Assembly (NCBI GenBank): GCA_030700025.1 | Contig: JAUYKI010000017.1 | Location: 2,748 to 66,747 of the forward strand | Source of the DNA: a bacterium | Lineage (GTDB): Bacteria; Patescibacteriota; Minisyncoccia; UBA6257; 02-FULL-45-10c | Reading direction: 5' to 3' | DNA: 64,000 nucleotides | Shown: piece after piece, positions 3,400 to 55,320 of the stretch | Numbering within the stretch: the first letter of the stretch is position 1 | Layout of the letters: each line of letters starts with the position of its first letter | Program-made: the position numbers and the translations under genes | Notes under the pieces: model-generated | Seen by the model: only the letters and a program-made list of their open reading frames with translations | What the model was told of the DNA's origin: nothing | The model's database searches: none

Positions 3400-4668
3400 A
3401 TGTTTAAAAAGTATGTTTTATCCAGCGGTTTAAGAGTGGTGTTGGCTCCCCAGCCGGACAATGTGGCGGCCACGGTTTTGGTATTGGTAGAGGCGGGATC
3501 AAAATACGAAACCAAAAAAATTAACGGCTTATCTCATTTTTTGGAACATTTATGTTTTAAGGGAACGGCTAAGCGGCCGACGGCGATTGCCATTGCTTCA
3601 GAATTGGAATCTTTGGGAGCGGTTTACAATGCTTTTACCGGGCACGAAGTAACCGGTTATTACGCCAAAGTCGGCGCGTCTAAAATTAATTCGGCTTTGG
3701 ATATTATCGCCGATCTTTATCAGGACCCGGTTTTTGACGAAGCGGAATTTGAAAAAGAAAAAGGAGTTATTATTGAAGAAATTAATTTATACGAAGATAC
3801 GCCGACCCGGAAAGTCCAGGAACTTTTTACGGAATTGATGTACGGCGATCAGCCGGCCGGCTGGCCCATCGGCGGTTTGAAGGAAGTAATTTTGTCGTTA
3901 AAAAAACAGGATGTTTTGAATTACCGCTCGGAGCACTACGTGGCTAAGGCTACGACCGTAGTGGTTGCTGGCGCTTTTAATGAAAAAGAAATGCTGAAAA
4001 GAATAAAAACGCTTTTTGCTAAAACTCCGGCTAACAAAAAATTCTCTAAAATCCGCACTCAAGAATCCCAGGCCCGGCCTCAAACTTTAGTGCGCTTTAA
4101 AAAATCAGACCAAACTCATTTGGTAATGGGCTTCCGGGCATTTGACCGGTACGATAAACGGCAGTACGCGCTGGAAGTTTTAGCGGATATTTTGGGCGGC
4201 GGCATGAGCTCCCGGCTTTTTCAAAGAATCAGGGCAGAATTAGGCGCGGCTTATTACGTTAAAGCCGGAACCGATTTATTTACGGATCATGGATTTTTGT
4301 CCGTATCGGCCGGAGTGGACCACCGGAAATTAAAAGAAGTTATTGAGGCAGCTTTGGGGGAGTTTAAGAAAATTTCTTCGGTTTTGGTAACTTCCAATGA
4401 GCTAGAAAAATCTAAGAATCATTTGACCGGCCAGGCGATGCTGGGTTTGGAAACCTCGGACGCCTTAGCCAGTTTTTACGGAGAACAGGAGATTTTCCAG
4501 GAAAAGATATTGAACCTTCGGGACGTTATTAAAAAAATAGAGGCCGTGACCGCTAAAGACGTTTTAAACGTTGCCCGTGAAATTATGAAGGATAAAAAGT
4601 TGAATTTGGCGCTTATCGGACCGGTCAAGAAGCTTCCGACCGGGCTGGATTTTAGTTTGGGGCGGTAG
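3400..4668 (+). CDS. M16 family zinc peptidase (pitrilysin-like)
   Basis: HFLEHLCFKGT carries the inverted zinc motif HxxEH. The 422-aa two-domain length is typical. Confidence 0.85.
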   Translation: MFKKYVLSSGLRVVLAPQPDNVAATVLVLVEAGSKYETKKINGLSHFLEHLCFKGTAKRPTAIAIASELESLGAVYNAFTGHEVTGYYAKVGASKINSALDIIADLYQDPVFDEAEFEKEKGVIIEEINLYEDTPTRKVQELFTELMYGDQPAGWPIGGLKEVILSLKKQDVLNYRSEHYVAKATTVVVAGAFNEKEMLKRIKTLFAKTPANKKFSKIRTQESQARPQTLVRFKKSDQTHLVMGFRAFDRYDKRQYALEVLADILGGGMSSRLFQRIRAELGAAYYVKAGTDLFTDHGFLSVSAGVDHRKLKEVIEAALGEFKKISSVLVTSNELEKSKNHLTGQAMLGLETSDALASFYGEQEIFQEKILNLRDVIKKIEAVTAKDVLNVAREIMKDKKLNLALIGPVKKLPTGLDFSLGR

Positions 4669-5796: not shown

Positions 5797-5803
5797 TTAT
5801 TTA

Positions 5804-6092
5804 GAACCTATCTCAATAATATTTCCTAACCGCGTTGCTAAGATAAATGCCAGATTTCAAGGCACGACGACGAAATTATGGCCATAGCCACATTGAGGAG
5901 GAGTAACGAAGAAATATGGCATTTAGACCGCAACCCAAAGGGACATAGTAAATTTTGTTCATAACTTCGTTGCTCGGGCTCGACGTAGCCAAGCTACAGT
6001 CTCGCCCCTGCCTGCCGGTAGGCAGGCTCGCGCCTTGTTCTGAATCAAAATTTACTTATATCGCGTTTGGAATTATTATTGGGATAGGTTCT
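5804..6092 (+). ncRNA. Candidate structured element, ~280-nt family, copy 1 (RNA versus DNA repeat unresolved)
   Basis: 24-nt terminal arms pair (5804-5827 with 6069-6092, 2 mismatches). P2 pairs 5844-5858 with 5911-5925 (14/15). P3 pairs 5947-5957 with 6046-6056 (11/11). Shares the core TGAGGAGGAGTAACGAAG and CTTCGTTGCTCG with the copies at 27767 and 44559. Confidence 0.5.
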
Positions 6093-6093
6093 T

Positions 6094-7722
6094 ATGTCTA
6101 AGTTCTATATCACTACCTCTATTGCTTATGTTAATGCCGCCCCGCATATTGGTTTTGCGCTGGAAGCGGTTCAGGCGGACGTAGTTGCCCGCTGGCATAA
6201 GCAGGAGGAAGTCTTCTTTTTAACCGGCACAGACGAGCACGGAGCGAAAATTGCCAGGGCCGCGGCCGCCTCGCGCGGCGAGGCGCCGCCGAAAGCGAGC
6301 CTCGCCACTGGCGGGAGCCTCGCCCCAAAGGGGCGGGAAGCCGACAATAAGTTAATAAAAGAATTTGTTGATCAGCAAGCAGAAAAGTTTAAAGCGTTAA
6401 AAAGCGCGCTTAATTTATCCTGGGACAACTTCATCCGGACTTCCGACCAAAAAGTTCATTGGCCGGTGGCGCAAGAAGTCTGGAAGCGGATTGCGGAGGC
6501 GGGCGATTTATATAAAAAAACTTATCAGGGGCTTTATTGCGTCGGCCACGAAGCGTTTGTTACCCAGAAAGACTTAGTGGCGGAAACCCCGACGCTAGAG
6601 GGTCGGGGCTCCGACCGAAGCGCCGGAGATGCCTTAGTATGTAAAGATCATAAAAAAGCCCCGGAGCTTATAGAAGAAGAAAACTGGTTTTTTAAATTAT
6701 CAAAATATACGAAAGATATTGAATTGCGAATAAAGAATGATGAATTACGGATTATTCCGGAAGGCCGGAAAAATGAGGTTTTGGGCTTGCTTAAGGACGA
6801 TCCGGAAGATGGTTCGGCAAGCTCACCACAAGACGTGAGTTTCTCCCGGCCGAGCAAAGACTTAACCTGGGGCGTTCCGGTGCCGGGCGATGATTCGCAA
6901 ACCATGTATGTCTGGGCAGATGCCCTCACGAACTATATTAGCGGTTATGGCGGAGTTAAAAACTGGGAAAAGCATCCGGCGGATATCCATTTTATCGGTA
7001 AAGATATTTTACGTTTTCACGCGATCATTTGGCCGGCGATGCTTTTATCGGCAAAATTGCCCTTGCCGAAAACTATTTTTGTGCACGGCCATATTTTGTC
7101 TGACGGGCAGAAGATGTCTAAATCCTTAGGCAATGTGGTGGATCCGTTTGAATTAGTAAAAAAGTATGGTTCGGCAAGCTCATCACAAGCTGGCACAGAT
7201 GCAGTTCGGTATTTTCTTTTGCGGGAAATTCCGTCGGCGGAAGACGGCGATTTTAGCTATGAAAAATTTACCCAGCGGTATAACGCGGATTTGGCAAACG
7301 GATTAGGTAATTTTGCGGCCCGGGTTTTAACCCTTGCGAGTAATTACAGCGAATATTTTACAATTCACGCTAACCCCCAGAACGTTCACGAGGTGGTTAA
7401 TGACAAAATTAAGGAAACCCAATTATTAGCTAATAAGAAAATCACGGATTTTAAACTTAACGAAGCACTAGAAATAATTTGGAGCTTAATCCATTTTGGG
7501 GATCAGTATATAAATGAAAAAAAACCATGGGAGCGAAAGGATGAAAAAATAATAGAGGCAAATGGCGTAGCGATTCACAGTTCGGTAGCAATTTTAAATA
7601 ACGTGGCGATTTTACTCCAACCATTTTTGCCGGACACCGCGGATAAAATTACCAAGAGCATCGTTTGGGAAGAAGGTAGGCTGGAAATCCAAAAGACCGA
7701 AAATTTATTTCCGAGATTGTAA
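6094..7722 (+). CDS. metG: Methionine--tRNA ligase
   Basis: N-terminus YITTSIAYVNAAPHIGF, a KMSKS motif (KMSKSLGN) and WADALTNY. Carries several in-frame repeat-derived insertions (see findings). Confidence 0.9.
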   Translation: MSKFYITTSIAYVNAAPHIGFALEAVQADVVARWHKQEEVFFLTGTDEHGAKIARAAAASRGEAPPKASLATGGSLAPKGREADNKLIKEFVDQQAEKFKALKSALNLSWDNFIRTSDQKVHWPVAQEVWKRIAEAGDLYKKTYQGLYCVGHEAFVTQKDLVAETPTLEGRGSDRSAGDALVCKDHKKAPELIEEENWFFKLSKYTKDIELRIKNDELRIIPEGRKNEVLGLLKDDPEDGSASSPQDVSFSRPSKDLTWGVPVPGDDSQTMYVWADALTNYISGYGGVKNWEKHPADIHFIGKDILRFHAIIWPAMLLSAKLPLPKTIFVHGHILSDGQKMSKSLGNVVDPFELVKKYGSASSSQAGTDAVRYFLLREIPSAEDGDFSYEKFTQRYNADLANGLGNFAARVLTLASNYSEYFTIHANPQNVHEVVNDKIKETQLLANKKITDFKLNEALEIIWSLIHFGDQYINEKKPWERKDEKIIEANGVAIHSSVAILNNVAILLQPFLPDTADKITKSIVWEEGRLEIQKTENLFPRL

Positions 7723-20017: not shown

Positions 20018-20062
20018 AATTGGCTTGTATCGCGTTATGGGATTACTATTAGAATAGGTTCT
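20018..20062 (+). repeat. Solo 3' end of the ~280-nt element family
   Basis: 40 of 45 nt identical to 44787-44831 (AATTGGCT..TATCGCGTTATGGGATTA.TATT.G.ATAGGTTCT). Confidence 0.65.
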
Positions 20063-20065
20063 ATT

Positions 20066-20905
20066 ATGGAAAAGTTTATCGGATTAATTTTATTGGCTTT
20101 TGCCGTTGCCGCGGGAATCTTTATATTTTCCCGCGAGGGCGGTTTGTCCAAGTTGGCGGCTCCTTACACTGTTAAGTTGGAGCCGTATTCTTACCGGCAA
20201 AGATATTCGGATGCCGGAGCGGATCAGCCCTCTGGATCGGACTATAGCTCTTACGGCCAATCGGAAATTGAAAACAGAAAGTTGTTAACCATTTCTTCGT
20301 TCCGGCCAGCCAATAGTTATGTTTCTTATTCGGAGATAGTTTTAGATTCCAATTTGAACAGCGGCGAGACCGCGGACATTACCGGCTGGATCATTAAGGG
20401 TGAACACGGATCATTCACTATTCCGCGGGCGCAGGAAGTTTTTTCTTCCGGCGGAGTTGAGGGCAATATCGTGGCGCGTTCCCGGGACGCGATTTATCTT
20501 TATTCCGGCTTTGGACCGAAGGGCAATTTCCGTTTGAATAAATGCCTTGGTTACATAGAAGACGTTGCTCCGTTTACGCCGCCTCTGCCTAAAGATTGCC
20601 CGCAAATTTCCTGGTCGGAGATGCAGAGGTTCGGGGGTTATTGCCGGGATTATATTTCTTCGCTGGATACTTGCCAGACACCGAATGCTAATCCGCCGGT
20701 GCCCTTGGAAGATACGGCTTGCCACGCTTTTTTGCGGGATTTGAACTATGTCGGCTGTGTTGCGAATCATCGGAACGATCAGGATTTTCGTTCCAACGAA
20801 TGGAGGGTTTGGATGGGGGATCAGATGAATATCTTTGACCCAATTCACGATCGAATCCAGCTTTGGGATAAAAGCGGAAAATTGGTAGACGAATACATTT
20901 ATTAG
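20066..20905 (+). CDS. Membrane-anchored lamin-tail-domain-like protein
   Basis: Start moved to MEKFIGLILLAFAVAAGIFIF (TM helix). The upstream part of the ORF crosses a terminator. ...ADITGWIIKGEHGSFTIP... resembles the LTD signature. Confidence 0.6.
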   Translation: MEKFIGLILLAFAVAAGIFIFSREGGLSKLAAPYTVKLEPYSYRQRYSDAGADQPSGSDYSSYGQSEIENRKLLTISSFRPANSYVSYSEIVLDSNLNSGETADITGWIIKGEHGSFTIPRAQEVFSSGGVEGNIVARSRDAIYLYSGFGPKGNFRLNKCLGYIEDVAPFTPPLPKDCPQISWSEMQRFGGYCRDYISSLDTCQTPNANPPVPLEDTACHAFLRDLNYVGCVANHRNDQDFRSNEWRVWMGDQMNIFDPIHDRIQLWDKSGKLVDEYIY

Positions 20906-27398: not shown

Positions 27399-27473
27399 TG
27401 GTGTCCCCGGACTGAATCGAACAGTCATCCACTCCTTAGGACGGAGTTGTTCTATCCATTGAACTACGGGGAC
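27399..27473 (-). tRNA. tRNA-Arg (anticodon CCU)
   Basis: Manual cloverleaf with anticodon loop GTCCTAA and an encoded CCA. Confidence 0.85.
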
Positions 27474-27766
27474 GTTTTTCTTTATCCACAAGGCTTACTT
27501 TACAATGTTTGGCGGTAATTTGCTATAATAGTTTCTAGTTGTGTCGCGTCCATAAAAGGGTTTTTGTTGTTTCTTAGAACCCGGTTGTGAGGACTGGATT
27601 TTGAGAAAGGCAGGTTTGTTTCAAAAAATAAGAATCGAGTGGCGGGTCGAATATTATTTATATAATTTAATTCACCGCGCCCAAGCATTCTTTTTCAAAA
27701 ACAAAACGGAAAGTCTTATGAGCCCTCCGCGGAGTCATAAGACTTGCCAGCCCTTTTATGGGCGTA

Positions 27767-28041
27767 GGGGTCTGTCATAAAATTACTGGCTTAATTTGGA
27801 GGCCTGGATTTGAGACAGGTACGAGACGCGACGACGACAACGTGTCTGAATGAAGGACACGTTGAGGAGGAGTAACGAAGTAGCTGGCCAAAGATAGGCC
27901 TCCCCGAAGGGCCAAAGCATTTTATGGGCTGCGACTGCGTCACTCGTCGTCAATGTAGCTAAAGCTACAATCTCCTCCTCGTTTCTTGTCTCGCTCCAAA
28001 AATGCTATGGTAAATAAGTCATTAATTTTATGACAGACCCC
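27767..28041 (+). ncRNA. Candidate structured element, ~280-nt family, copy 3
   Basis: P1 pairs 27767-27785 with 28023-28041 (19/19, sequence unrelated to copies 1 and 2). P2 pairs 27798-27805 with 27896-27903. P3 pairs 27916-27923 with 27999-28006. Hairpins at 27839-27863 and 27954-27969. Core TGAGGAGGAGTAACGAAG at 27863-27880. Confidence 0.5.
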
Positions 28042-28151
28042 AGTATGGTATAGTTTAAGTAAGCATTATAAACAAGAACCTATTGAAATGGGTTCGGGCA
28101 ATCGATTTGATAAGGTCGCGATTAGCTCAATTCTAATTTTTCAAAAAAACT

Positions 28152-28400
28152 ATGGCAAATTCTGCATTTATGAAGCCGTTGAAAGTTAGCTCGGACTTAG
28201 CCGCGGTAGTCGGCAATGGCCCAATGCCTCGGAGCGAAGTTGTAAAGAAGCTCTGGGTATACATCAAAAAGAACAACCTTCAAGATCCTACAAATAAGCG
28301 CAACATCAACGCCGACGCGAACTTGAAAAAAGTTTTTGGCGGAAAGTCAGTTGTGAACATGTTTGAAATGACCAAATTGGTTTCCAAGCATCTTTCTTAA
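28152..28400 (+). CDS. SWIB/MDM2 domain protein
   Basis: 82 aa. ...PRSEVVKKLWVYIKKNNLQDP..KRNI..D..L..VFG... matches the SWIB pattern. Confidence 0.8.
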   Translation: MANSAFMKPLKVSSDLAAVVGNGPMPRSEVVKKLWVYIKKNNLQDPTNKRNINADANLKKVFGGKSVVNMFEMTKLVSKHLS

Positions 28401-28957: not shown

Positions 28958-30130
28958 TTGAAAACTGATAAAAAGGCGGTTACGATGGAACCGAAAAAGG
29001 GCTTGCGTGATGTTCCGGCCGGACAGACCCGGCTTTGCTTGTTGGATGAAGCCAACAGCGAACTTTATTATTGCGGTTATTCTATCAGGGATTTAGTTGA
29101 GCATTATCCCTATGAAGCCGTGGCTTATTTGATGCTTCACGGCGAATTGCCTTCCGAGTCGGAATTAAAAATTTTCACCCGTCGCCTGGTGAATAACGCA
29201 TGGAATATGCCTCAAGTGGTAGTTAAGAGTTTGGAGTTAAAAACTCCATTCACTGATGCCCATCCGATGGATAAATTGTCACTGATAATCCGGGCTGACG
29301 GCAATACTCACGGCATTCCGTTTTCTACGCCATCGTTAGAGAATAATTTGGACTTAGCGAAATCTTTGATTGCCCGGTTGCCTTTAATGGTTGCTTTGCT
29401 GGGCGGCGCTAGCCGGAATTATTTTGACTATTTTGATCCAGACCGCACGCTGATGGAAAATTTTGTAGATTCTTTGCGGATCCCGAACGAAGGCGGTTTG
29501 GCAACGAAATTAATGAATGTCGCGTTTATTCTTTACGCGGAACATGAATTCAACGCCGGGTCTTTCGCGGTTCGGGTGGCAGCCAGCGCGCACACCGATA
29601 TTTATTCCGCGGTTTTGGGAGGATTAGGAACTTTGCGCGGTACTCGCCACGGCGGAGCCAATGAAGAAGTAATGAAGAAGATGCTGGAAATCGGAACACC
29701 GGAAAAAACGCGCGAATATTGCGACCGATTTTTGTCTCAGCCGGGAGCGCGCTTGCCGGGATTTGGCCACGCGGTTTATACCATCGGCGATCCGCGGGTA
29801 GCGGTTCTCCGCCCGCTGGTAAAAGATTTGTCGGTCCGAAAGAACGATATGCGCTGGTATGAAATTGCTGTCGCGCTGGAAGAATATATGGCGGAGCGTT
29901 CTCGGGGAAAGTCTAAGCCCTTGCCGGCTAACACTGACCTTTGGACGGCGCCGTTATATCACTTGCTGGGCATCCCGATTCGTCTTTTCACCCCGCTTTT
30001 CGCCGCCTCCCGGGTTTCCGGCTGGTGCGGACATTATTTGGAAGTGCGGCATGTTTACAACGAACCGATTCTTCGGCCGCGCGCCGAATATGTCGGATCC
30101 GCTCCTCGGAAAGTAATCCCTCACTCTTGA
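28958..30130 (+). CDS. Citrate synthase family protein (citrate/2-methylcitrate synthase-like)
   Basis: GFGHAVYTIGDPR active-site region. Start uncertain (TTG 28958 or ATG 28985). The last 4 codons lie in a repeat arm. Confidence 0.85.
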   Translation: MKTDKKAVTMEPKKGLRDVPAGQTRLCLLDEANSELYYCGYSIRDLVEHYPYEAVAYLMLHGELPSESELKIFTRRLVNNAWNMPQVVVKSLELKTPFTDAHPMDKLSLIIRADGNTHGIPFSTPSLENNLDLAKSLIARLPLMVALLGGASRNYFDYFDPDRTLMENFVDSLRIPNEGGLATKLMNVAFILYAEHEFNAGSFAVRVAASAHTDIYSAVLGGLGTLRGTRHGGANEEVMKKMLEIGTPEKTREYCDRFLSQPGARLPGFGHAVYTIGDPRVAVLRPLVKDLSVRKNDMRWYEIAVALEEYMAERSRGKSKPLPANTDLWTAPLYHLLGIPIRLFTPLFAASRVSGWCGHYLEVRHVYNEPILRPRAEYVGSAPRKVIPHS

Positions 30131-30191
30131 AAGAATTAACCTCGCTTATAGCGAGGTTTTTTATAGCAACGTTATTTCAAAAGTGAGGGAT
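30116..30191. repeat. Inverted-repeat cassette, CCCTCAC family
   Basis: ATCCCTCACTCTTGAAA pairs with TTTCAAAAGTGAGGGAT (16/17). The interior holds a CCTCGC/GCGAGG terminator with a T-run. Confidence 0.7.
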
Positions 30192-30269
30192 TTATTTTGA
30201 AGTTGATTTTTATGGAATTTAGCATTAAACTATTCTCGTTCTTTAATAACGAGGTATGGAGGATGAAAC

Positions 30270-31586
30270 ATGTTGACTACTAAAAATCTGCTGAATCACT
30301 TAGTAAATTTTTCTCATGACCTCAAATACAAAGATCTGCCGCCGGAAGTTGTCCACGAAGCTAAGCGGCGCTTAATTGATTCTATGGCCTGCGCGATAGC
30401 TGGCTCGCATGATCCGGCCACGCTTTTACTTGCTAAAAACTCTTGCGAATCCATGGAAGAGAAAGCCTTCAGATTTACGCATTTAATCCGCGTACTGGAT
30501 TGGAACGATACCTATCTTTCCAAAGAGCCGGCTCATCCTTCTGATAATATCGGCGCCCTGCTCGCGCTTTGTAACTATGGCATTTCCGGAGAAGATTTTA
30601 TTACCGCCATGGTGCTGGCTTATGAAATCCAGTGCCGGTTCTGCGACGCGGCTTCGCTCCGTAAAAATGGCTGGGACCACGTTGCTTACGTTTCGTTAGC
30701 CACTGCGTTTGCCACGGCAAAAATCCTGAAACTCAACCGCGAAAAAATGACCCATGCCGCTTCGCTGGCTCTCCGCTGGATTCCGCTTCGCCAAGTGCGC
30801 GCCGGATCGGACCTTTCAATGTCAAAGGGGCTTTCGGCGGCAGAAGCGGTAAAATTCGGCGTTCATTCAGCTCAATTAGCTAATTGCGGAATTACCGGCC
30901 CAAGCGAAATGATGGAAGGACAATTTGGATTTATTAATCAAGCAACCGGCGAGCTGGATTTTTCCGCCTTTACTTCACTCGGTTCGGAATTCAAAATTCT
31001 GAAAACCCACATTAAACTTTATCCGGTGGAATACCATGCCCAAGCCGCAGTGGATGTGGCTCTGCAAATCCGAAAAACACTAAATGGACGAGTGGAGAAC
31101 ATTACTCGCCTTGACCTTGAATCCTATGAAGCATGCCGAGCCATTATTGCCGACAAAAACAAACGCCGGCCAGCCACTAAAGAATCTGCTGACCATTCCC
31201 TGTTTTATATCATGGCAGTTACTCTTTTAGACGGAGAAATGACCTTGAAGCAATACGCACCCGAAAGATACAATGATCCGGCAGTACTTCAGCTGATTGA
31301 TAAAATGAGCGACGTTCAAGAAACGCCAAAATTTAATGAAGCTTATCTCAATCGAGAAAAACCCGCTTTTCCGCTTCGTTGCAAAGTTATTGGCTACCCC
31401 ATTCCATATACGGTAGAGGTTGAATTTCCCAAGGGCCACTTTGCAAATCCTTTAACCGACGATGAATTAGTTGAAAAGTTTAAGGCCCTAACTAGCCAAG
31501 ATATAAATCCAGTTTCATTAAAATCGGGCCTGGAATATCTTTGGCACTTGGAAGACGAACCGCGCCTCGCTCCTGTAAAATTTTAA
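30270..31586 (+). CDS. MmgE/PrpD family protein (2-methylcitrate dehydratase-like)
   Basis: 438 aa with a PrpD-like pattern throughout and GGAGG upstream. Confidence 0.8.
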   Translation: MLTTKNLLNHLVNFSHDLKYKDLPPEVVHEAKRRLIDSMACAIAGSHDPATLLLAKNSCESMEEKAFRFTHLIRVLDWNDTYLSKEPAHPSDNIGALLALCNYGISGEDFITAMVLAYEIQCRFCDAASLRKNGWDHVAYVSLATAFATAKILKLNREKMTHAASLALRWIPLRQVRAGSDLSMSKGLSAAEAVKFGVHSAQLANCGITGPSEMMEGQFGFINQATGELDFSAFTSLGSEFKILKTHIKLYPVEYHAQAAVDVALQIRKTLNGRVENITRLDLESYEACRAIIADKNKRRPATKESADHSLFYIMAVTLLDGEMTLKQYAPERYNDPAVLQLIDKMSDVQETPKFNEAYLNREKPAFPLRCKVIGYPIPYTVEVEFPKGHFANPLTDDELVEKFKALTSQDINPVSLKSGLEYLWHLEDEPRLAPVKF

Positions 31587-44558: not shown

Positions 44559-44830
44559 GAACCTATCCCAATAATAATCCTCAAACGCGTTGCTAGTATA
44601 AATTGAAAATTTCTAGGCCTGCCGAGGAGCTTGTGGCCATAGCCACAGTGAGGAGGCAGAACAACGAAATTTTCAATTTAGACAGCAACCCCAAGAGGGA
44701 TACAGCCAATTTTATCCATAACGTCGTTGCTCGTCGAAGATATAGCTTACGCTATAAATCTTCTCCTCGCGTCTAGTTCTGAATAAAATTGGCTAATATC
44801 GCGTTATGGGATTATTATTGGGATAGGTTC
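44559..44830 (+). ncRNA. Candidate structured element, ~280-nt family, copy 2 (best preserved)
   Basis: P1 22/22, P2 15/15, P3 12/12, two hairpins and conserved cores. See the finding for coordinates. Confidence 0.55.
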
Positions 44831-48076: not shown

Positions 48077-50476
48077 ATGATTAAGGGGTTGCGCATTTTT
48101 ATTATTTTATCCGGAGCGTTTCTTTTGTCTTCTTCCGCCCTGGCGGGGTCGGGGGTTTATTCAGCTAATATTTTTGACGCCGGATTAAATGTATCTGGCG
48201 TTGGGCCGGTTGATTATTCGGATATTTTGAGCGCTCGGCTGGCGGGCTGGAATAATTTATTGCAAAGAGTTAATCCCCAAACCCCGCCTAATTATTGGAT
48301 TTGGCTTGGCCATATTGCGTCTTATGGTTATGCTGGATGCAGCAGCGCTTCTATCGGCGCTTTGTCGAGCGCTTATGGCAATCAATATGGTTTGGAAGTT
48401 TATAAAGATTCGGCAACCGGAAATTGCACGGCGCTTCAATCCAAACCGCTTTCTTCCGGCGCCACCCACTCAATAAATTTAACTAAATCCGGATTGGGAG
48501 ACGGGACAGTTAGTTCCAATCCAACCGGCATTAGTTGCGGAGCGATTTGTTCCAGCGATTTTACTCATGGCGCCAGCGTTGCGCTTAGCGCGGCTGCGGA
48601 TGGAGTTTCGCAGTTTGCCGGCTGGGGAGGAAATTTTTGCGCCGCTACCAGCACGCCAAGTAATTGTATGGCGCTGATGGTCAGCGACCGGACGATTACC
48701 GCAACTTTCGTTCCGATCGGAACCCCATTAAATACTTTAACCGTTCAAAAAATTGCAGTTGGCAATGCCAATGGCGTGATTACGGATTCCGGACTGGGCC
48801 AAGGGTCATTTTTAAATATTAATTGCGGAACTGATTGTTCCGAGTCCTATGTTGCCGGCGCGTCAGTTATTCTTTATGCCTATCCTAATGCCGAATCTAA
48901 TTTCGGATCTTGGGTTGGCTGTAATAGCGTTTCCGGCAATGCCTGCACGGTAACGATGAGCGCGGCCAAAAATGTCCGGGCTGGTTTTAGTAATAAAAAT
49001 TTTCCGGTTACGGTTTCTAAGACTGGAGCGGGAACCGGCAGCGTGTCTGGCACCGGAATTAATTGCGGAGCGACTTGTTCCGCGAATCTTTCGGCCGGAA
49101 ACGGATTTTTGTTTATTGCCAGCCCGGGGGTTAATTCTAAATTTGAAAGTTGGAGCGGCTGCGATTATTCAGCGGGAAATAATTGCTTAATAGATGTATT
49201 TTCGGCTAAATCAATTACCGCGAATTTCTCCGCCTCTTATGCGGTCACCGTTACGAAAAGCGGTAATGGCGCGCCTGCGGGCAGCGTTACTTCTACTGGC
49301 GGAATAGACTGCGGAATTATTTGTTCGGCTAGTTTTGTTCCGGGAGCTAATGTAGCTTTAACCGCCTCCGTGGGCGATCCTCAATATCAATTTTCCGGCT
49401 GGGGAGGCGATTGCGCTTCTTTCGGAACTAATCTAACCTGCAGTTTAAATAACATTTCTTCCGCTAAATCAGTTTCCGCTGTTTTTGATGCTGTTCGCCC
49501 GACTTTAACTATTACCAAATCCGGCACCGGAGACGGATCGTTTAGTATTAGCGGCGGTTCACCAATTTGCACCCCCGGTTGCGTTTACGCGTATGGCTCG
49601 GTAGTGACAATTTCCGCTACTCCAAACGCCTTTTCTACATTTACCGGCTGGACCGGTGATTGCGCTAGTTTTGGCGCGAACACCACCTGTACTTTAACTA
49701 TGACTTCTAATAAAAGCGCCTCGGCTATTTTTGACTTGCCGGTTCTGACTTTAAATAAGAGCGGCGCCGGGCAGGGAACGGTTTCGGATGCCCCATTGAA
49801 AATTAATTGCGACCCGTCTTGCGTTACTGCTTCCGCTAGTTACAACAAGCAAAGCTCCGTAACTCTGACCGCGGCGCCGGACGCCGATTCCAGCTTTTTT
49901 GACTGGTCCGGCTGTGATAATTTTACCCCCACCACCTGCACGATATTAATGAATACCCACCGGACCGTTACAGCCGATTTTTTAGCCACGGACGTTAAAT
50001 ATGATTTAACGGTTTCTAAGTCCGGAGCGGGCGACGGAACAGTTACTTCTTCGGTGGCGGGAATTAATTGCGGCGCCGATTGTTCTGAAAAATATATTGA
50101 AAATTCCGATATCGTTCTCCACTCGTCTTCTAATCTTGATTCAGCCTTTGTCGGCTGGACCGGATGCGATAGCGTTAATGGCAATTCCTGCGTAGTTACT
50201 ATGAGTACCGCGAAAAATATTAGCGCGGAATTTGCCGCGTCGCCGGTGTCCGGAAGTTATTCTTTGAGTGTTTTTAAAGTTCCGGACGGCGGAACAATAG
50301 TTTCCAGTGAAAGTTATATTGATTGCGGCGGGACTTGTTCCAAAACCCTAGGCACTGTTTGGAGCACTACACTGACCGTAATGACTAATAATGATTATCA
50401 ATTTGCCGGATGGACTGGAGATTGCACCAGCACCAGCGGAAGCTCATGCGTAATTAATTTTACCCAATGCCAATAA
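48077..50476 (+). CDS. Secreted protein with ~8 tandem divergent InlB-B-repeat-type domains
   Basis: Signal-like N-terminus. Repeating ~85-aa units (G.G.V.S.P.GI.CG..C...F..G..V.L.A.P...S.F.GW.G.C....C.V.M...K.V.A.F). Confidence 0.8.
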   Translation: MIKGLRIFIILSGAFLLSSSALAGSGVYSANIFDAGLNVSGVGPVDYSDILSARLAGWNNLLQRVNPQTPPNYWIWLGHIASYGYAGCSSASIGALSSAYGNQYGLEVYKDSATGNCTALQSKPLSSGATHSINLTKSGLGDGTVSSNPTGISCGAICSSDFTHGASVALSAAADGVSQFAGWGGNFCAATSTPSNCMALMVSDRTITATFVPIGTPLNTLTVQKIAVGNANGVITDSGLGQGSFLNINCGTDCSESYVAGASVILYAYPNAESNFGSWVGCNSVSGNACTVTMSAAKNVRAGFSNKNFPVTVSKTGAGTGSVSGTGINCGATCSANLSAGNGFLFIASPGVNSKFESWSGCDYSAGNNCLIDVFSAKSITANFSASYAVTVTKSGNGAPAGSVTSTGGIDCGIICSASFVPGANVALTASVGDPQYQFSGWGGDCASFGTNLTCSLNNISSAKSVSAVFDAVRPTLTITKSGTGDGSFSISGGSPICTPGCVYAYGSVVTISATPNAFSTFTGWTGDCASFGANTTCTLTMTSNKSASAIFDLPVLTLNKSGAGQGTVSDAPLKINCDPSCVTASASYNKQSSVTLTAAPDADSSFFDWSGCDNFTPTTCTILMNTHRTVTADFLATDVKYDLTVSKSGAGDGTVTSSVAGINCGADCSEKYIENSDIVLHSSSNLDSAFVGWTGCDSVNGNSCVVTMSTAKNISAEFAASPVSGSYSLSVFKVPDGGTIVSSESYIDCGGTCSKTLGTVWSTTLTVMTNNDYQFAGWTGDCTSTSGSSCVINFTQCQ

Positions 50477-50477
50477 T

Positions 50478-53453
50478 ATGAATATCCGGAATTATAAATT
50501 TTTAATACTTTTCTTAATCGGCCTTTGGGGCGCCGGTAATTTGGCCTTTGCGCAAATTACGCCGGACCCTGGTGAGCACGCGGTTAGAGTTTATAAATCC
50601 GGCACCGGCAGTGGTTTGGTAACAGACCAGTATTCCCAAATTGACTGCGGGAACGATTGCCAGGGGAATTATATTGGGGCTGCTTCCACCTGGGTTACTT
50701 TGGAACCTTTTCCTTCTCCTAACAGCTCTTTTGCCGGTTGGTACGGTTGTGACTCCGTAAATACCATGGTTATATTGCCTGATTTGCCGACTTGCTCAGT
50801 TAATACGAGCCCCTTCGTTCCTAGATCAGTTAACGCGATTTTTAACTCTAACACCCCGTGGCATCAAGCTAAATTAACCGTGACTACATCGGGCGATGGC
50901 GGGGGATCGGTATTTTCCAATCCCGGATTTATCAGTTGCGGAGCGGTTTGTTCCGATAATTTTTCGAATCCTTCTTATCCTTTATTTACCGCCACTCTTA
51001 TCAACACCGGTTCCTTAGGGTCATTTACCAATCAGCAGGTAATACATATTGTTGATAGCAGTGGTAGAATCACAGTGGGCGGAAATAGGCTTCAGACCCT
51101 CAATTCGGAAGGTGTGACCAATCCTCAGCAAACTATTATTGACATAGCGGACGGATTTATAAACGTATCGCCGACTATTAAATATATTTACGCGCTGGGA
51201 TATAGGGGGAGTGGAAATATTGCTGAATATCTTTTGGACGTGATTAATCCTTCTGCTCCTCAGGGAGCGCAAGCTAGTGCGCCAGAGGTGGTGAATCGTA
51301 TTCCGCTCCCCATAGATTCAACTGGAGGGGAAGATTACAGCGTTTACTCTAAAATTGCTCTGGCCGGAAATTTTGTTTATATAACTCGTTGGTCAGGAAC
51401 TTCGGTCAGCGCGGGTGGCAGTGGAGGCGCTTTATTGATTTTTGATATATCTGATCCGTTGAATCCGGCGCAGGTCGGGTTCATTGCTCCCCGCTTCAGT
51501 CCTGGCTATGGAATCGCGGCGATTAATAATCCTTTTATTGGAAATTATGCTTATATGGGACAGCAGCATCAGTTCTCTGTAATTGATGTTTCCAGTCCGG
51601 CTAGTCCGGCAGTTGTCGGCACTGTCGGCGGCACCGGCCTATTTAAGGGCGTTTTTAATGAAGTGGCTGAAGCCTTTCCGTATGTTTATGTTTCCAGCGT
51701 GAATGCTTCGGATAATTCCAATACGCTTTATATTATAGACGTTAGTAAGCCGAACAGCCCGGCGTTGATTAGCGCGACACCGATTGATTATTTTAACGGC
51801 GATTTAAGGCCGGCCGTCGGAGGAAAGCTTCTTTTTATCGGTTCCACGGTTTATGATGTTTCTGATCCGTTTCATCCCAGAAAAATCGGCCAAGGGCCGG
51901 GAGGCGTTCAATATGGGGGCGATACTTCTTTTCAAGTTGGAAGTTTGAATGAAGGCAATGATTATGTTGTAACCGGAACCAACGCTACGGGATTCGGCAT
52001 CTACTCGATTAAAAGAACTTTTGTTACGGGTACTGGTTGGGTTCCCACTTATGACCTTTTATCTTTTGCTCCCGGATTGGGAATTTATCCTAACCCGACT
52101 GTTAGTTTATCCGGAGAGCCGGAAGACGATTCGATTTTGGGCGCTTGGTCCGGAGATGTTCCGGGAACTTGCGCCAACAACGCGTCGTGTTTAGTAACTG
52201 CTGTTTTGGGCGCGGAAACTAACGCAGATGCCAGATTTGATGCCGCCGCGGCGCTCGCGCCTACTTCGGCAACTTTAACCGTTACTAAATCCGGAAATGG
52301 ATCCGGCCATGTATCTGATTCGGCTTTGGATTCTTCTTCGTTAGGCGGCGCTTCTTTGGGCGGCGGATCATTGGGTTTTGTTTCCGGGGGAATTGATTGC
52401 GGCGGGGATTGCGATGAAACTTACCCAACGGACACCAGCGTAATTCTTTTGGCAACGCCAAGCGCCGGATCGGATTTTGTAAAATGGAATGGCTGTGTAA
52501 TCGGTGCGGTAATGAAAGATGACGGAGCGCTTTGGAATCCGGCTACTTTGGCGGCTAAACAATCTAACGGCGCTAATGCTTGGGACGGAAGAAATTACAG
52601 CGCCTTGGCTTTCCAAAACAAGCTTTGGGTTTTAGGAGGCGGGAGCACCTTAGGCCAAGTATGGTATTCGGCTGACAACGGCATTACTTGGGCGCAGTAT
52701 ACTCGGGCCTTTATCGCTCCGTCGTCGTGGGCTCCGTGGTGGTCAACTAAATTCGGATTCTCGGCGTTGAGCTACGGAACCAAGATGTGGGTTTTGGGCG
52801 GAACGGAGGGCGGTAGTTCTTATACTAATGAAGTTTGGAGTTCTTTTGACGGCCAAAATTGGAGTCAGGGGCTGAATGCCGATTGGTCTCCGCGGGTTAA
52901 CTTTGCCGCAACCAGATTTAACGGCTCTATGTGGGTATTGGGCGGAAATGCTAAAGAAAATAATAGTTTTGTAAATAAAAATGATGTCTGGTCTTCGGTT
53001 GGCAGTTCCGGATATTGGAGTCCTGTAAATGTATCTGCCGCTTGGTCTGCCCGACAAGGCCATGCCGCAGTCGCTTTTAATGGCCAATTATGGGTTTTAG
53101 GCGGATTGGACGCGGGCGGTTATAAGAATGACGTTTGGTCATCTTCCAACGGAACTGATTGGATTCAAAAAAATTCTTCGGCGCCTTGGCCGGCTCGGGC
53201 TTTTCATAAAGTTTTGGTTTTTGATAATAAACTTTGGGTGATGGGCGGTTCGGGCTCTTTTCAGCCGGCCGATTTTAAAAATGATGTGTGGTATTCCGTG
53301 GACGGCGTTAATTGGATTCAGTCGGGATTGGCGGATTGGCCGGCTCGGTTTGATTTTGGCGCTACGGTTTTCAATAATAAAATGTGGATTTTGGGCGGAA
53401 CGGTCGGGTCCAATTTATATGTAAATGACGTTTGGTATTCGGCGGCGCATTAA
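50478..53453 (+). CDS. Large secreted protein: B-repeats, LVIVD-like beta-propeller region and six Kelch-like blades
   Basis: Signal peptide. YVYVSS...LYIIDVSKPNSP-type repeats in the middle. C-terminal NKLWVLGG...NDVWSS.DG..W repeated six times. Confidence 0.8.
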   Translation: MNIRNYKFLILFLIGLWGAGNLAFAQITPDPGEHAVRVYKSGTGSGLVTDQYSQIDCGNDCQGNYIGAASTWVTLEPFPSPNSSFAGWYGCDSVNTMVILPDLPTCSVNTSPFVPRSVNAIFNSNTPWHQAKLTVTTSGDGGGSVFSNPGFISCGAVCSDNFSNPSYPLFTATLINTGSLGSFTNQQVIHIVDSSGRITVGGNRLQTLNSEGVTNPQQTIIDIADGFINVSPTIKYIYALGYRGSGNIAEYLLDVINPSAPQGAQASAPEVVNRIPLPIDSTGGEDYSVYSKIALAGNFVYITRWSGTSVSAGGSGGALLIFDISDPLNPAQVGFIAPRFSPGYGIAAINNPFIGNYAYMGQQHQFSVIDVSSPASPAVVGTVGGTGLFKGVFNEVAEAFPYVYVSSVNASDNSNTLYIIDVSKPNSPALISATPIDYFNGDLRPAVGGKLLFIGSTVYDVSDPFHPRKIGQGPGGVQYGGDTSFQVGSLNEGNDYVVTGTNATGFGIYSIKRTFVTGTGWVPTYDLLSFAPGLGIYPNPTVSLSGEPEDDSILGAWSGDVPGTCANNASCLVTAVLGAETNADARFDAAAALAPTSATLTVTKSGNGSGHVSDSALDSSSLGGASLGGGSLGFVSGGIDCGGDCDETYPTDTSVILLATPSAGSDFVKWNGCVIGAVMKDDGALWNPATLAAKQSNGANAWDGRNYSALAFQNKLWVLGGGSTLGQVWYSADNGITWAQYTRAFIAPSSWAPWWSTKFGFSALSYGTKMWVLGGTEGGSSYTNEVWSSFDGQNWSQGLNADWSPRVNFAATRFNGSMWVLGGNAKENNSFVNKNDVWSSVGSSGYWSPVNVSAAWSARQGHAAVAFNGQLWVLGGLDAGGYKNDVWSSSNGTDWIQKNSSAPWPARAFHKVLVFDNKLWVMGGSGSFQPADFKNDVWYSVDGVNWIQSGLADWPARFDFGATVFNNKMWILGGTVGSNLYVNDVWYSAAH

Positions 53454-53456
53454 AAT

Positions 53457-55103
53457 ATGGAAAACTGGAAACAAAAAATTTATTTATTGTTGGCGTTGGC
53501 GGGAATTGGATTTATCGCGGGAACCGTTTTTGCCGCGGATGCCGGGGTTCGCTGGTTTCAAACCGATCCGGTCGCCGGGGCAATCTGGACTGCCAGAAAC
53601 GGACACTCGGCTCTGGTTTTTAACAACAAAATGTGGATTTTAGGAGGAACTCTCTCGCCGGGTTATAAAAATGATGTTTGGCTTTCTTTTAATGGCATCA
53701 ATTGGGTTCAACGGACTCCGTCCGCCGCGTGGCAGGCCAGGACCGAACACGCGTCCCTAGTCTTTAATAATAAAATGTGGGTTTTGGGAGGATCTATCTC
53801 GACGGGTTTTAAAAATGATGTTTGGTCTTCCGCGGATGGATTTACTTGGAATTCAGAAACTGCCGCGGCCGCCTGGCCGGCAAGAGATCGCCACGCGTCC
53901 CTAGTTTTTAATAATAAAATGTGGATTTTAGGAGGATCTACCTCGGCGGGTTCGAAAAATGACGTTTGGTCTTCCGTGGACGGAATTACTTGGACGCAAG
54001 AAACTGCTTCCGCCGGCTGGTCTCCGCGTTTCGACTTAGTAGCTCTCGTTTTTAATAACAAGATGTGGGTTTTAGGCGGCAGTGGTTCTCTGAATGATGC
54101 TTGGTCTTCTTCAGATGGAGTTACGTGGACCAGGGTCAGTCCGGCAATTGGCGCTGATTGGCCGGGGCGGTCCGGGCATACCGGAGTGGTTTATGACGGA
54201 AAAATGTGGATTTTTGGCGGACAAAGAGCAAATACCATTTTTAATGATGCTTGGTATTCCGTGGACGGAATAAGTTGGTCTCAGGCGTTATTAGCGGCTG
54301 ATTCTCAATGGGGCGCCCGATGGAATCACGCTTCTTTAGTCTTTAATAATAAAATGTGGATTTTGGGCGGTTCTGGCGGCCCTAATAAAAATGATATTTG
54401 GCATTCCCAGCAGGATAATCTTCCGGTGGAAGCGTGCGTGATTACCAGTGATAGAAATCGGACTGTTGACGCGGAATTTAAAGGCCAGCTTTATACGGTT
54501 ACGGTGGTTAGCATTAATCAGGACGGAGCCGGAAAAGGCGCGGTTAGTTCCACGGATAATAAAATCAGCGATTGCCAAACGATTTGTTCCGCCGAAAATT
54601 ATGCTTACAATTCCAGTGTTGCTTTAAACGCCATGGCCGCCGACGGTTCGGAATTTGACCATTGGGAAGGGCCAAGCCCTTGCGATAACAGCGCCGAATT
54701 GAGCTGTTCTTTGACTTTAACCGGCGATGTAACTGTTTACGCGGTATTTAAATCGTTGATGGCCGCTTGCGTGGTGGAAAAATCAGTTACCGCGAACTTT
54801 GCCACTTCTTTTCCGACTTGTACGCTGACGATTGCTCCGCAAGGAACAAATGCCAGTCAGGCAATTATTTCTTGGACCACCACTAATAATCCGACTAGCG
54901 CTGTTATAGATGATGGCGTTGGTGCGCCAGTAGCGGTGACTATCCCGCCGGCCAGCGGTAGCATGACGATTACTCCGCCTGGCAACACTACTTATATTAT
55001 GACCGTCACGAATAACGCCGGCAGCCGCACTTGCAGCGCTCAGGCTTCAGCGGCGCCCGGAAGATTTCAATTTAAAGATATTCGCGAAATTCTCCCGTTT
55101 TAG
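53457..55103 (+). CDS. Secreted Kelch-repeat beta-propeller protein with C-terminal B-repeat/Ig-like region
   Basis: Six blades with the ATGTGG landmark spaced 141-150 nt apart (53631, 53775, 53919, 54063, 54204, 54354). Confidence 0.8.
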   Translation: MENWKQKIYLLLALAGIGFIAGTVFAADAGVRWFQTDPVAGAIWTARNGHSALVFNNKMWILGGTLSPGYKNDVWLSFNGINWVQRTPSAAWQARTEHASLVFNNKMWVLGGSISTGFKNDVWSSADGFTWNSETAAAAWPARDRHASLVFNNKMWILGGSTSAGSKNDVWSSVDGITWTQETASAGWSPRFDLVALVFNNKMWVLGGSGSLNDAWSSSDGVTWTRVSPAIGADWPGRSGHTGVVYDGKMWIFGGQRANTIFNDAWYSVDGISWSQALLAADSQWGARWNHASLVFNNKMWILGGSGGPNKNDIWHSQQDNLPVEACVITSDRNRTVDAEFKGQLYTVTVVSINQDGAGKGAVSSTDNKISDCQTICSAENYAYNSSVALNAMAADGSEFDHWEGPSPCDNSAELSCSLTLTGDVTVYAVFKSLMAACVVEKSVTANFATSFPTCTLTIAPQGTNASQAIISWTTTNNPTSAVIDDGVGAPVAVTIPPASGSMTITPPGNTTYIMTVTNNAGSRTCSAQASAAPGRFQFKDIREILPF

Positions 55104-55129
55104 TTAGAAGGTTTTAACTCGAAGTCGAA

Positions 55130-55252
55130 GCAACATCTCTTTAAGGGAACATCCCGCAGGCGTATTTTGCTTGGACCACAAAATACGCCGAGGGCGAAGA
55201 AAATCCGGCCGCTGGAGCCGGATTATTCTGTTTCCCAAAAAAGAGATGTTGC
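55130..55252 (+). other. Three-helix structured intergenic element
   Basis: Outer arms 55130-55151 and 55229-55252 (bulged) enclose hairpins at 55159-55189 (11 bp) and 55202-55224 (7-8 bp). Confidence 0.45.
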
Positions 55253-55320
55253 TAAGATCCTTGACGGGGATTTTTTAATGCCATAAAATATACTGGCGTT
55301 CTTTAACAAAGCAACAAGGT

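Follow-up and report, generated by a model that had tools for sequence, protein, structure and literature searches.

A probable second-subfamily member of a large, undescribed family of palindromic, non-coding mobile DNA

Introduction

The 275-nt element at positions 27767–28041 of the window, by which is meant the whole 64-kb stretch of DNA analysed here, is probably a second-subfamily member of a large and undescribed family of non-coding, palindromic mobile DNA of about 270 bp, which would be recognised in the form of folded single-stranded DNA. Candidate-phyla-radiation bacteria have tiny, streamlined genomes, and in these 64 kb three full copies of the family, two remnants and one footprint are present. 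The combination of a conserved interior with variable ends is the reverse of what is known for bacterial miniature transposons, and points to machinery that reads the shape of the DNA (or RNA). Here, we describe the element, called copy 3, its relatives in the same window and in other bacteria, and the explanations that may account for it.

Copy 3 and Its Family

Copy 3 (plus strand, as set by the family alignment) is delimited by an inverted repeat and by nhmmer and covariance-model matches, and is missing from the corresponding contig of a relative. Its terminal helix, P1, is formed by two arms at 27767–27796 and 28012–28041 (repeat I1), neither of which is assigned to a strand. The outer 19 nt of these arms are perfect, with the tips GGGGTCTGTCATAAAATTA (27767–27785) and TAATTTTATGACAGACCCC (28023–28041) paired at 19 of 19 positions, as originally predicted, and the inverted repeat in fact reaches 30 nt at 90%. 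The arms had also been described as unrelated to the GAACCTATCCCAATAATAA arms of copies 1 and 2, and this is confirmed by an ungapped identity of about 7/19, which is the chance level; GAACCTATCCCAATAATAAT is the mark of copy 1, copy 2 and two 3' remnants, and the arms of copy 3 are unrelated to it. The folding energy of the whole element, –117.8 kcal/mol (z = –8.65), is far beyond chance.

The two internal hairpins that had been described are both present on the plus strand. Hairpin 1, CAACGTGTC / GACACGTTG, is a 9-bp stem at 27838–27864 (27838–27846 / 27856–27864; repeat I14) with covariation between columns 54–57 and 70–73, while hairpin 2, TGTAGC / GCTACA, lies at 27954–27969 (27954–27959 / 27964–27969) with covariation between columns 217–221 and 230–234. 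Their stems had been reported to differ from those of the other copies: this is correct for hairpin 1 but not for hairpin 2, whose GTAGC/GCTAC stem is that of copy 1. A similar distinction applies to the three core sequences considered to be retained. The first, TGAGGAGGAGTAACGAAG at 27863–27880, is an 18-mer identical to positions 5894–5911 of copy 1, with 0.02 chance matches expected, whereas CGTCACTCGTCGTC and CTCCTCCTC are kept only in part in copies 1 and 2, where their counterparts are CGTTGCTCGGGCTC / CGTTGCTCGTCGAA and CTCGCCCC / CTTCTCCTC.

Copy 3 is a true and strong member of the family of copies 1 and 2. In the covariance test named by the original prediction, performed with a model of the left half (R1) built from 63 homologs with copy 3 left out, it scored 91.5 bits (E 2.7e-26; 27792–27905) and was the top match in the window, above copies 1 and 2 themselves, so that the prediction withstood its own test. 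The core of copy 3 is 66–71% identical to Elusimicrobia-type copies, as compared with 53–56% to copies 1 and 2 of the same genome, which indicates that two subfamilies coexist in one genome.

The family ranges over candidate-phyla-radiation bacteria (Parcubacteria-like), Elusimicrobia and other groundwater and sediment bacteria; the nearest named sequences of the host MetRS are from Harrisonbacteria and Parcubacteria, at about 64% identity. With a degenerate pattern of the core, four copies were retrieved from a genome of Elusimicrobia and a single copy from one of Candidatus Harrisonbacteria, and a second pattern retrieved at least 120 loci on metagenome contigs whose sources are groundwater, soil and aquifer sediment. 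About 100 of the at least 125 loci found by pattern scanning have homologs confirmed by nhmmer; some pattern loci are due to chance, 16 of the first 70 being devoid of a covariance-model match. Among 82 full elements, 72 of them distinct, the outer-to-outer length is 258–300 nt and mostly 266–277 nt. The core sequence is conserved across phyla while the stems co-vary, and the family could mark horizontal exchange between very distant phyla. Searches of Rfam 15 with the window and four other loci, at gathering and at permissive thresholds (E up to 10), returned only tRNAs and chance matches to microRNA models; viral contigs gave zero true matches, with a single chance match (L130) in a GC-rich coding region, plasmid and phage collections gave zero matches, and a description of the family was not found in the literature on MITEs and repeat elements in these phyla.

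On some contigs (L055:5165-6040, L053:365-1316, L019 and L097) two elements, sometimes of differing terminal-repeat classes, lie within 0.3–5 kb of each other, which denotes a high local density. The EF-Tu (tuf) gene directly adjoins an element on seven different contigs (L028, L012, L039, L041, L085, L066 and L103), and tRNA genes, too, are abundant around tuf (L074).

Filled and Empty Sites

All three copies in the window, each as a whole unit with its P1 helix, are insertions relative to close relatives, and copy 3 is recently inserted. Its empty site is found in L126, a short contig of a relative, in which the SWIB protein beside copy 3 is encoded identically and which aligns to 27438–27761 and 28097–28400 at 81–89% identity with copy 3 absent; where L126 reads ...TTTTATGGACGCGA joined directly to CTATGGTATAG..., the window reads ...TTTTATGGGCGTA, the element (GGGG...CCCC) and AGTATGGTATAG.... 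Copy 2 (44559–44830, plus strand, subfamily a) starts 2 nt past the stop codon of the T2SS-F gene and is absent from the relatives L127, L128 and L129 (pilin identity 87–95%), the empty site TTCTAA-A-ATGTTAC being replaced in the window by TTCTAA-T(element)T-ATGTTAC. Copy 1 (5803–6092, plus strand, subfamily a) lies between the T-run of a terminator and the start codon of metG; in L131, which has the same gene order (peptidase M16, AI-2E transporter, metG), it is absent and the intergenic region leads straight from the T-run of the terminator into the start region of metG.

Since empty sites exist for all three copies, the whole element, ends included, is inserted DNA. The conservation of pairing in copy 3 had been taken in the original prediction to argue for a structural instead of a transpositional constraint. 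This contrast is mistaken in the light of the empty sites in L131, L127–L129 and L126; there is support for the structural constraint itself, which exists alongside mobility and not in place of it. The same comparison weighs on the idea that only the core was inserted, into pre-existing hairpins of the host, and that P1 is host sequence, which could explain why P1 is so diverse and why elements lie near terminators. The empty sites contradict it, containing neither P1 arm; furthermore, copies 1 and 2 and many metagenome copies have the same P1, and the total length including P1 is nearly constant, making this explanation extremely improbable.

The positions of the copies, directly past terminators or stop codons and directly before start codons, could instead suggest a cis element that serves the host in either orientation within read-through transcripts, where it might, for example, halt transcription, serve as an RNase III site or stabilise the mRNA, its mobility being incidental. 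Certain MITE-like repeats are reported to act as such cis elements, and the symmetry of the element ensures that a transcript arriving from either side meets a well-folding module first. However, the relatives are without copies at the same sites with their genes intact, the hairpins have no downstream T-run, and the G·A core shared across phyla would be left unexplained; a primary role of this kind is very unlikely.

Beyond the full copies, the window contains a truncated remnant of subfamily a, a 3' part at 20018–20076 (plus strand; nhmmer E 1.8e-07), and a short 3' remnant of the same subfamily, consisting of the right P1 arm, at 57122–57155 (plus strand), for which nhmmer alone is weak (E 0.13). 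In addition, GAACCTATTGAAATGGGTTC at 28076–28095 (plus strand) joins two 8-nt tips of the subfamily-a P1; it is unique in the window, with 0 occurrences expected, is missing from L126, and is probably a collapsed or excised copy. Its joined flanks are 2 nt shorter than the empty site of L126 and the flank is not duplicated.

Upstream of copy 3 a hairpin followed by a T-run on the minus strand had been noted, and had been considered to leave the transcribed strand unsettled. The hairpin does exist, at 27708–27748 (27708–27721 / 27735–27748), with a 14-nt stem and a T-rich tail on the minus strand, but it is a host feature outside copy 3: it is kept in L126, which is without the element, and is therefore silent on the element's transcribed strand. 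It may be a terminator that separates the tRNA genes from the SWIB gene.

Some features of the surroundings of these copies may be recorded here. The metG start codon lies 2 nt past the end of copy 1 (6092–6096), where the relative without the element has ATAAGACCTAT, so that the sequence preceding the start codon is now provided by the end of the element. In a read-based assembly of the same organism, the contig L133 (Logan SRR13727534) begins within copy 1, 275 nt before metG (window positions 5819–6093); thus the repeat breaks short-read assemblies, which is a practical problem for the annotation of groundwater metagenomes. The remnant at 57122–57155 adjoins the end of a run (48077–57093) of very large Kelch, LVIVD and InlB-B-repeat proteins. 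Positions 28958–31586 encode a citrate synthase together with a MmgE/PrpD-family gene; citrate synthase and MmgE/PrpD metabolism is unusual for the Harrisonbacteria/Parcubacteria group.

Architecture of the Element

The element consists of the P1 terminal inverted repeat, two inverted homologous modules of about 100–110 nt each and a small central hairpin, arranged in the order P1, module A (top strand), P4, module B (bottom strand; homologous to A) and second P1 arm. Module A (27792–27905, plus strand) is a long irregular hairpin comprising P2, P3, a G·A zipper and hairpin 1, and folds as single-stranded DNA with –23.7 kcal/mol (z = –5.7). The strands of P2 on the plus strand, GGAGGCC... at 27798–27812 and ...GGCCTCC at 27889–27903, pair with each other (repeat I7) and show covariation in alignment A5. 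P4, the short hairpin CCCCGAAGGG at 27902–27911 (plus strand), lies at the dyad of the element. Module B (27909–28017, minus strand) is the homolog of module A on the opposite strand; the strands of P5, CCAAAGCATTTT at 27912–27923 and AAAATGCTATGG at 27999–28010 (plus strand; repeat I10), pair with each other. The homology of the two halves is apparent from model R1 which, although built on left halves, also matches the right halves on the minus strand (in copy 3, 27909–28017, 53.3 bits, E 3.8e-14), and in nearly every covariance-model match the two modules occur side by side, one on each strand. Each of them forms a long hairpin on its own strand.

In these helices it is the pairing, not the sequence, that is conserved, in agreement with the original prediction. 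In module A 85.7% of the cells are paired, as against 63% in shuffles and 37–49% with the partners slid, and 29/29 pairs have changed on both sides; in module B, in alignment A7, covariation is evident with 91.2% of the cells paired as against 68% in shuffles, and 24/27 pairs have changed on both sides. Copy 1 carries an extra perfect hairpin of about 20 nt, CCTGCCTGCCGGTAGGCAGG, within its right module (6004–6030 of the window), and an Elusimicrobia copy has a 12-nt insertion in its central hairpin (L005, about 3790–3810), so that the modules tolerate small hairpin insertions.

What had been described as cores are conserved sequences that face each other in a tandem G·A zipper, with (CGA)3 on one strand and (GAG)3 on the other. 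In module A these are GCGACGACGA at 27828–27837 and GAGGAGGAG at 27864–27872 (both plus strand), the latter inside TGAGGAGGAGTAACGAAG; in module B, CGTCACTCGTCGTC at 27938–27951 and CTCCTCCTC at 27972–27980 (plus strand; repeat I15) are the complements of the (CGA)n and (GAG)n strands, respectively. What appeared to be a conserved internal loop is thus closed, with C-G pairs alternating with tandem 5'-GA/3'-AG mismatches. These are sheared-type tandem G·A pairs, (CGA)n opposite (GAG)n, and form the conserved centre of each module. The pairing of the zipper is supported by compensatory changes: at columns 39:86 G-C in 45 sequences is exchanged for A-T in 10, at columns 40:85 C-G in 52 sequences is exchanged for T-A in 5, and four sequences have G-C/C-G in place of the first G·A/A·G pair. 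The zipper of module B is built alike, except that G-C takes the place of C-G in the intervening pairs; for this reason, the sequence of the top strand is CGACGA...GAGGAG in the left half and TCGTCG...CTCCTC in the right half. The tandem (CGA)n·(GAG)n zipper offers a concrete candidate for a binding-site motif.

The complementarity of the two halves had suggested interleaved pairings, GACGACGA/TCGTCGTC and GAGGAGGAG/CTCCTCCTC, which are better read as by-products of two inverted homologous modules, since each module zips its own purine strands. The interleaved pseudoknot (CGACGA/TCGTCG with GAGGAG/CTCCTC) was rejected on zero covariation and many uncompensated changes, and the four sequences in which the left strand is changed are compensated within the module and not across the domains. 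Long-range PA/PD pairings were likewise discarded, with zero covariation and many uncompensated changes.

The Variable Terminal Helix

Unlike the core, P1 is constrained in pairing and not in sequence. Its length across the family is 20–32 bp and its arms fall into at least 18 sequence classes around a single conserved core; arms are paired at 94.7% with their own partners and at 32% with the arms of other elements. P1 therefore need only match its own partner, and its sequence has drifted into these classes.

In the largest class, the right arm resembles the T-arm and acceptor 3' strand of a tRNA, as for example in TGGTTCGAATCCTGGGCTCC followed by TA, and the left arm is complementary to it. 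Such arms consist of GGTTCGAATCC plus 10–12 nt and are found in L054:7675-7945, L028:1332-1603, L097, L020, L027, L074, L002 and others; the arm of L028 matches the 3' ends of a real tRNA-Tyr (L074) and a real tRNA-Ser (L095) at no fewer than 16 of 18 positions. A search for tRNA genes that overlap such arms found none, and the arms of copy 3 are not tRNA-like. The tRNA-like ends of this class are not explained by the mobile-DNA model.

DNA or RNA

Strong covariation, a conserved core and a fixed length are also what would be expected of a structured non-coding RNA gene, either ribozyme-like or protein-binding, that is carried on mobile DNA, with P1 as its closing helix and the purine segments as its functional core. 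Tandem G·A motifs are frequent in functional RNAs, and those of the zipper would fit this reading; many of the central hairpins are C(TTCG)G, and the tRNA-like P1 class could be a processing signal for RNase P or RNase Z. Moreover, a core of about 200 nt shared across phyla is unusual among known bacterial MITEs and REPINs and could point to a function as RNA. Against an RNA gene, Rfam gave zero matches for the element even at E up to 10, copy 3 has neither a promoter-like nor a terminator-like site in or beside it, and the orientation of elements relative to flanking genes is random (16 same/same and 16 opposite/opposite, every copy being intergenic).

The strands themselves also argue for DNA. 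Folding energies of whole elements favour the plus strand in 37 cases and the minus strand in 35, so there is no strand preference and a strand call by folding energy was set aside as uninformative; mismatches in P1 are without bias, with G·T in 37–57 cells and A·C in 40–46. Inside the modules, by comparison, wobbles counted in the sense of the module are G·T in 57 and A·C in 44 cells for module A (22 vs 11 sequences) and G·T in 84 and A·C in 32 cells for module B (40 vs 11 sequences), these being raw counts in which shared ancestry is included. Selection for folding acts on the top strand in the left half and on the bottom strand in the right half: the G·T excess in each module's own sense places it on opposite strands and follows a two-fold symmetric DNA logic. 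This switch of the wobble-tolerant strand is more readily reconciled with a two-fold symmetric DNA element than with a single RNA. Taken with the even folding and the random orientation, the data do not favour the RNA reading that had been envisaged for copy 3, and an RNA gene is an unlikely explanation of the family.

Mobilisation

In mobile DNA of this kind the insertion junctions are of particular interest. In the filled/empty comparisons no clean target duplication was found, in junctions that are blurred by relatives only 72–90% identical; with respect to the empty site, the joined flanks differ by 0 nt for copy 3 and by +1/–1 nt for copy 2, while the flanks of copy 1 are too diverged for a junction comparison (72% protein identity). 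Across 70 elements, the left flank ends in xTA in 28 and the right flank starts with TA in 32 and with TTA in 12. This enrichment, together with eight exact 3-nt duplications of TTA or TAA and with P1 helices that start with GG, GAG or GA, starts that may resemble the ends of the IS5 family, would suit an ordinary MITE mobilised by a DDE transposase (IS5/IS1031/IS427-like or IS630-like), whose P1 classes match resident insertion sequences and whose target, TA or TWA, is duplicated. The eight exact duplications in 70, however, are within the range of permutations (mean 4.6, maximum 11), and neither the filled/empty comparisons nor the footprint at 28076–28095 display a clean duplication. At least 18 unrelated classes of ends around one core are the opposite of ends read by a transposase, the covariation of internal hairpins is unexpected for binding sites in double-stranded DNA, and a transposase is absent from the window ORFs scanned and from the neighbours of the elements. 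An ordinary DDE-type MITE is accordingly improbable, although the enrichment of TA, TTA and TAA in the flanks may reflect a short duplication made by such a transposase.

The search for a mover covered 48 ORFs, that is, nearly all non-nested ORFs of the window of 100 aa or more, in which Pfam revealed no transposase, integrase, HUH or reverse-transcriptase domains. Clustering of the ORFs around about 100 elements yielded, as recurrent neighbours, only histidine kinases, EF-Tu, ABC transporters and MiaA, and candidates for an associated protein beside the elements were dismissed as common housekeeping families. Autonomous versions, consisting of a single module and an ORF, were sought: lone modules occur only in L059 and L069, neither with a candidate gene. 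No insertion sequence with matching ends was found in the 64-kb window or in the locus flanks examined. With no recurrent ORF, no transposase in the window and no autonomous version, the element would be non-autonomous.

The reading preferred here is that of a non-autonomous element that would be moved in trans by an enzyme reading the folded modules in single-stranded DNA. Recognition of the folded strand is the most economical explanation of a co-varying core, ends conserved only in pairing, the lack of clean duplication and selection on opposite strands, and suggests a single-stranded DNA step of mobility. The putative enzyme could be modelled on the tyrosine (HUH-type) transposases of REP/REPIN elements and not on a reader of terminal sequence; with an enzyme that reads shape, the ends would be free to vary while pairing and total length stay fixed. 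It may be speculated, tentatively, that the family represents a new class of mobile DNA, spread from the candidate phyla radiation to Elusimicrobia, in which the mobile unit is a folded, single-stranded, G·A-zipped module and the ends need only pair. If true, there would have to be a hitherto unrecognised transposase or recombinase that reads structure, or else RNA-mediated mobility making use of the tRNA-like ends.

Comparison with Known Systems

Two described systems read folded single-stranded DNA without sharing the layout of copy 3. The attC sites of integrons are likewise imperfect palindromes, recognised by shape once folded in single-stranded DNA, but they are 57–141 nt long, have R''/R' core sites, form the ends of cassettes beside an integrase platform and are without a conserved 200-nt core, whereas copy 3 is 275 nt long with such a core, lies between housekeeping genes and has no integrase. 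The ends of IS200/IS605 elements and of their miniature derivatives (PATEs) resemble the present family, as interpreted here, in that subterminal hairpins are read in single-stranded DNA, targets are not duplicated and mobilisation occurs in trans; however, they are without terminal inverted repeats and have both hairpins on the same strand, whereas the modules here occupy opposite strands and a long inverted repeat closes them.

Several properties are shared with bacterial MITEs (Correia, ERIC, RUP, Nezha, MITEAba12), which are less than 300 bp long, non-coding, intergenic and multi-copy, have terminal inverted repeats, show insertion polymorphism with filled and empty sites, and can sit between terminators and start codons. 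The family of copy 3 is likewise small, non-coding and multi-copy, with terminal inverted repeats and insertion polymorphism. The two differ in that the ends of MITEs are conserved while their interior drifts, the ends here being hypervariable and the interior conserved and co-varying, and in that a clean target duplication and a parent insertion sequence were not found in the examined loci.

The closest described system, by analogy, would be the REPIN/RAYT pair. REPINs are doublets of REP sequences that form hairpins and are mobilised by RAYT tyrosine transposases (PMC3116915), and a REP unit measures 20–40 nt and bears at one of its ends a conserved tag, GTAG or CGTC (PMC3733652). As in REPINs, the family of copy 3 is non-coding, intergenic and multi-copy, and is formed by two inverted copies of a hairpin-forming unit, an inverted doublet that folds as one hairpin; folding is predicted in single-stranded DNA or RNA, a protein is absent inside and beside the element, target duplication is not evident, and singlet or decayed remnants occur. 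The element nevertheless fails the REP-defining features that were testable, namely unit size and tag: the units here are about 100–110 nt long with a G·A zipper, and GT(A/G)N is confined to hairpins 1 and 2, of which it forms the 5' strand. It differs also in its total length of about 270 nt with an extra variable terminal helix and in a core conserved across phyla, REPINs being lineage-specific, and Pfam identified no RAYT gene among the window ORFs scanned. On these comparisons, the family of copy 3 is best filed as a new, REPIN/MITE-like variant of palindromic, non-autonomous mobile DNA.
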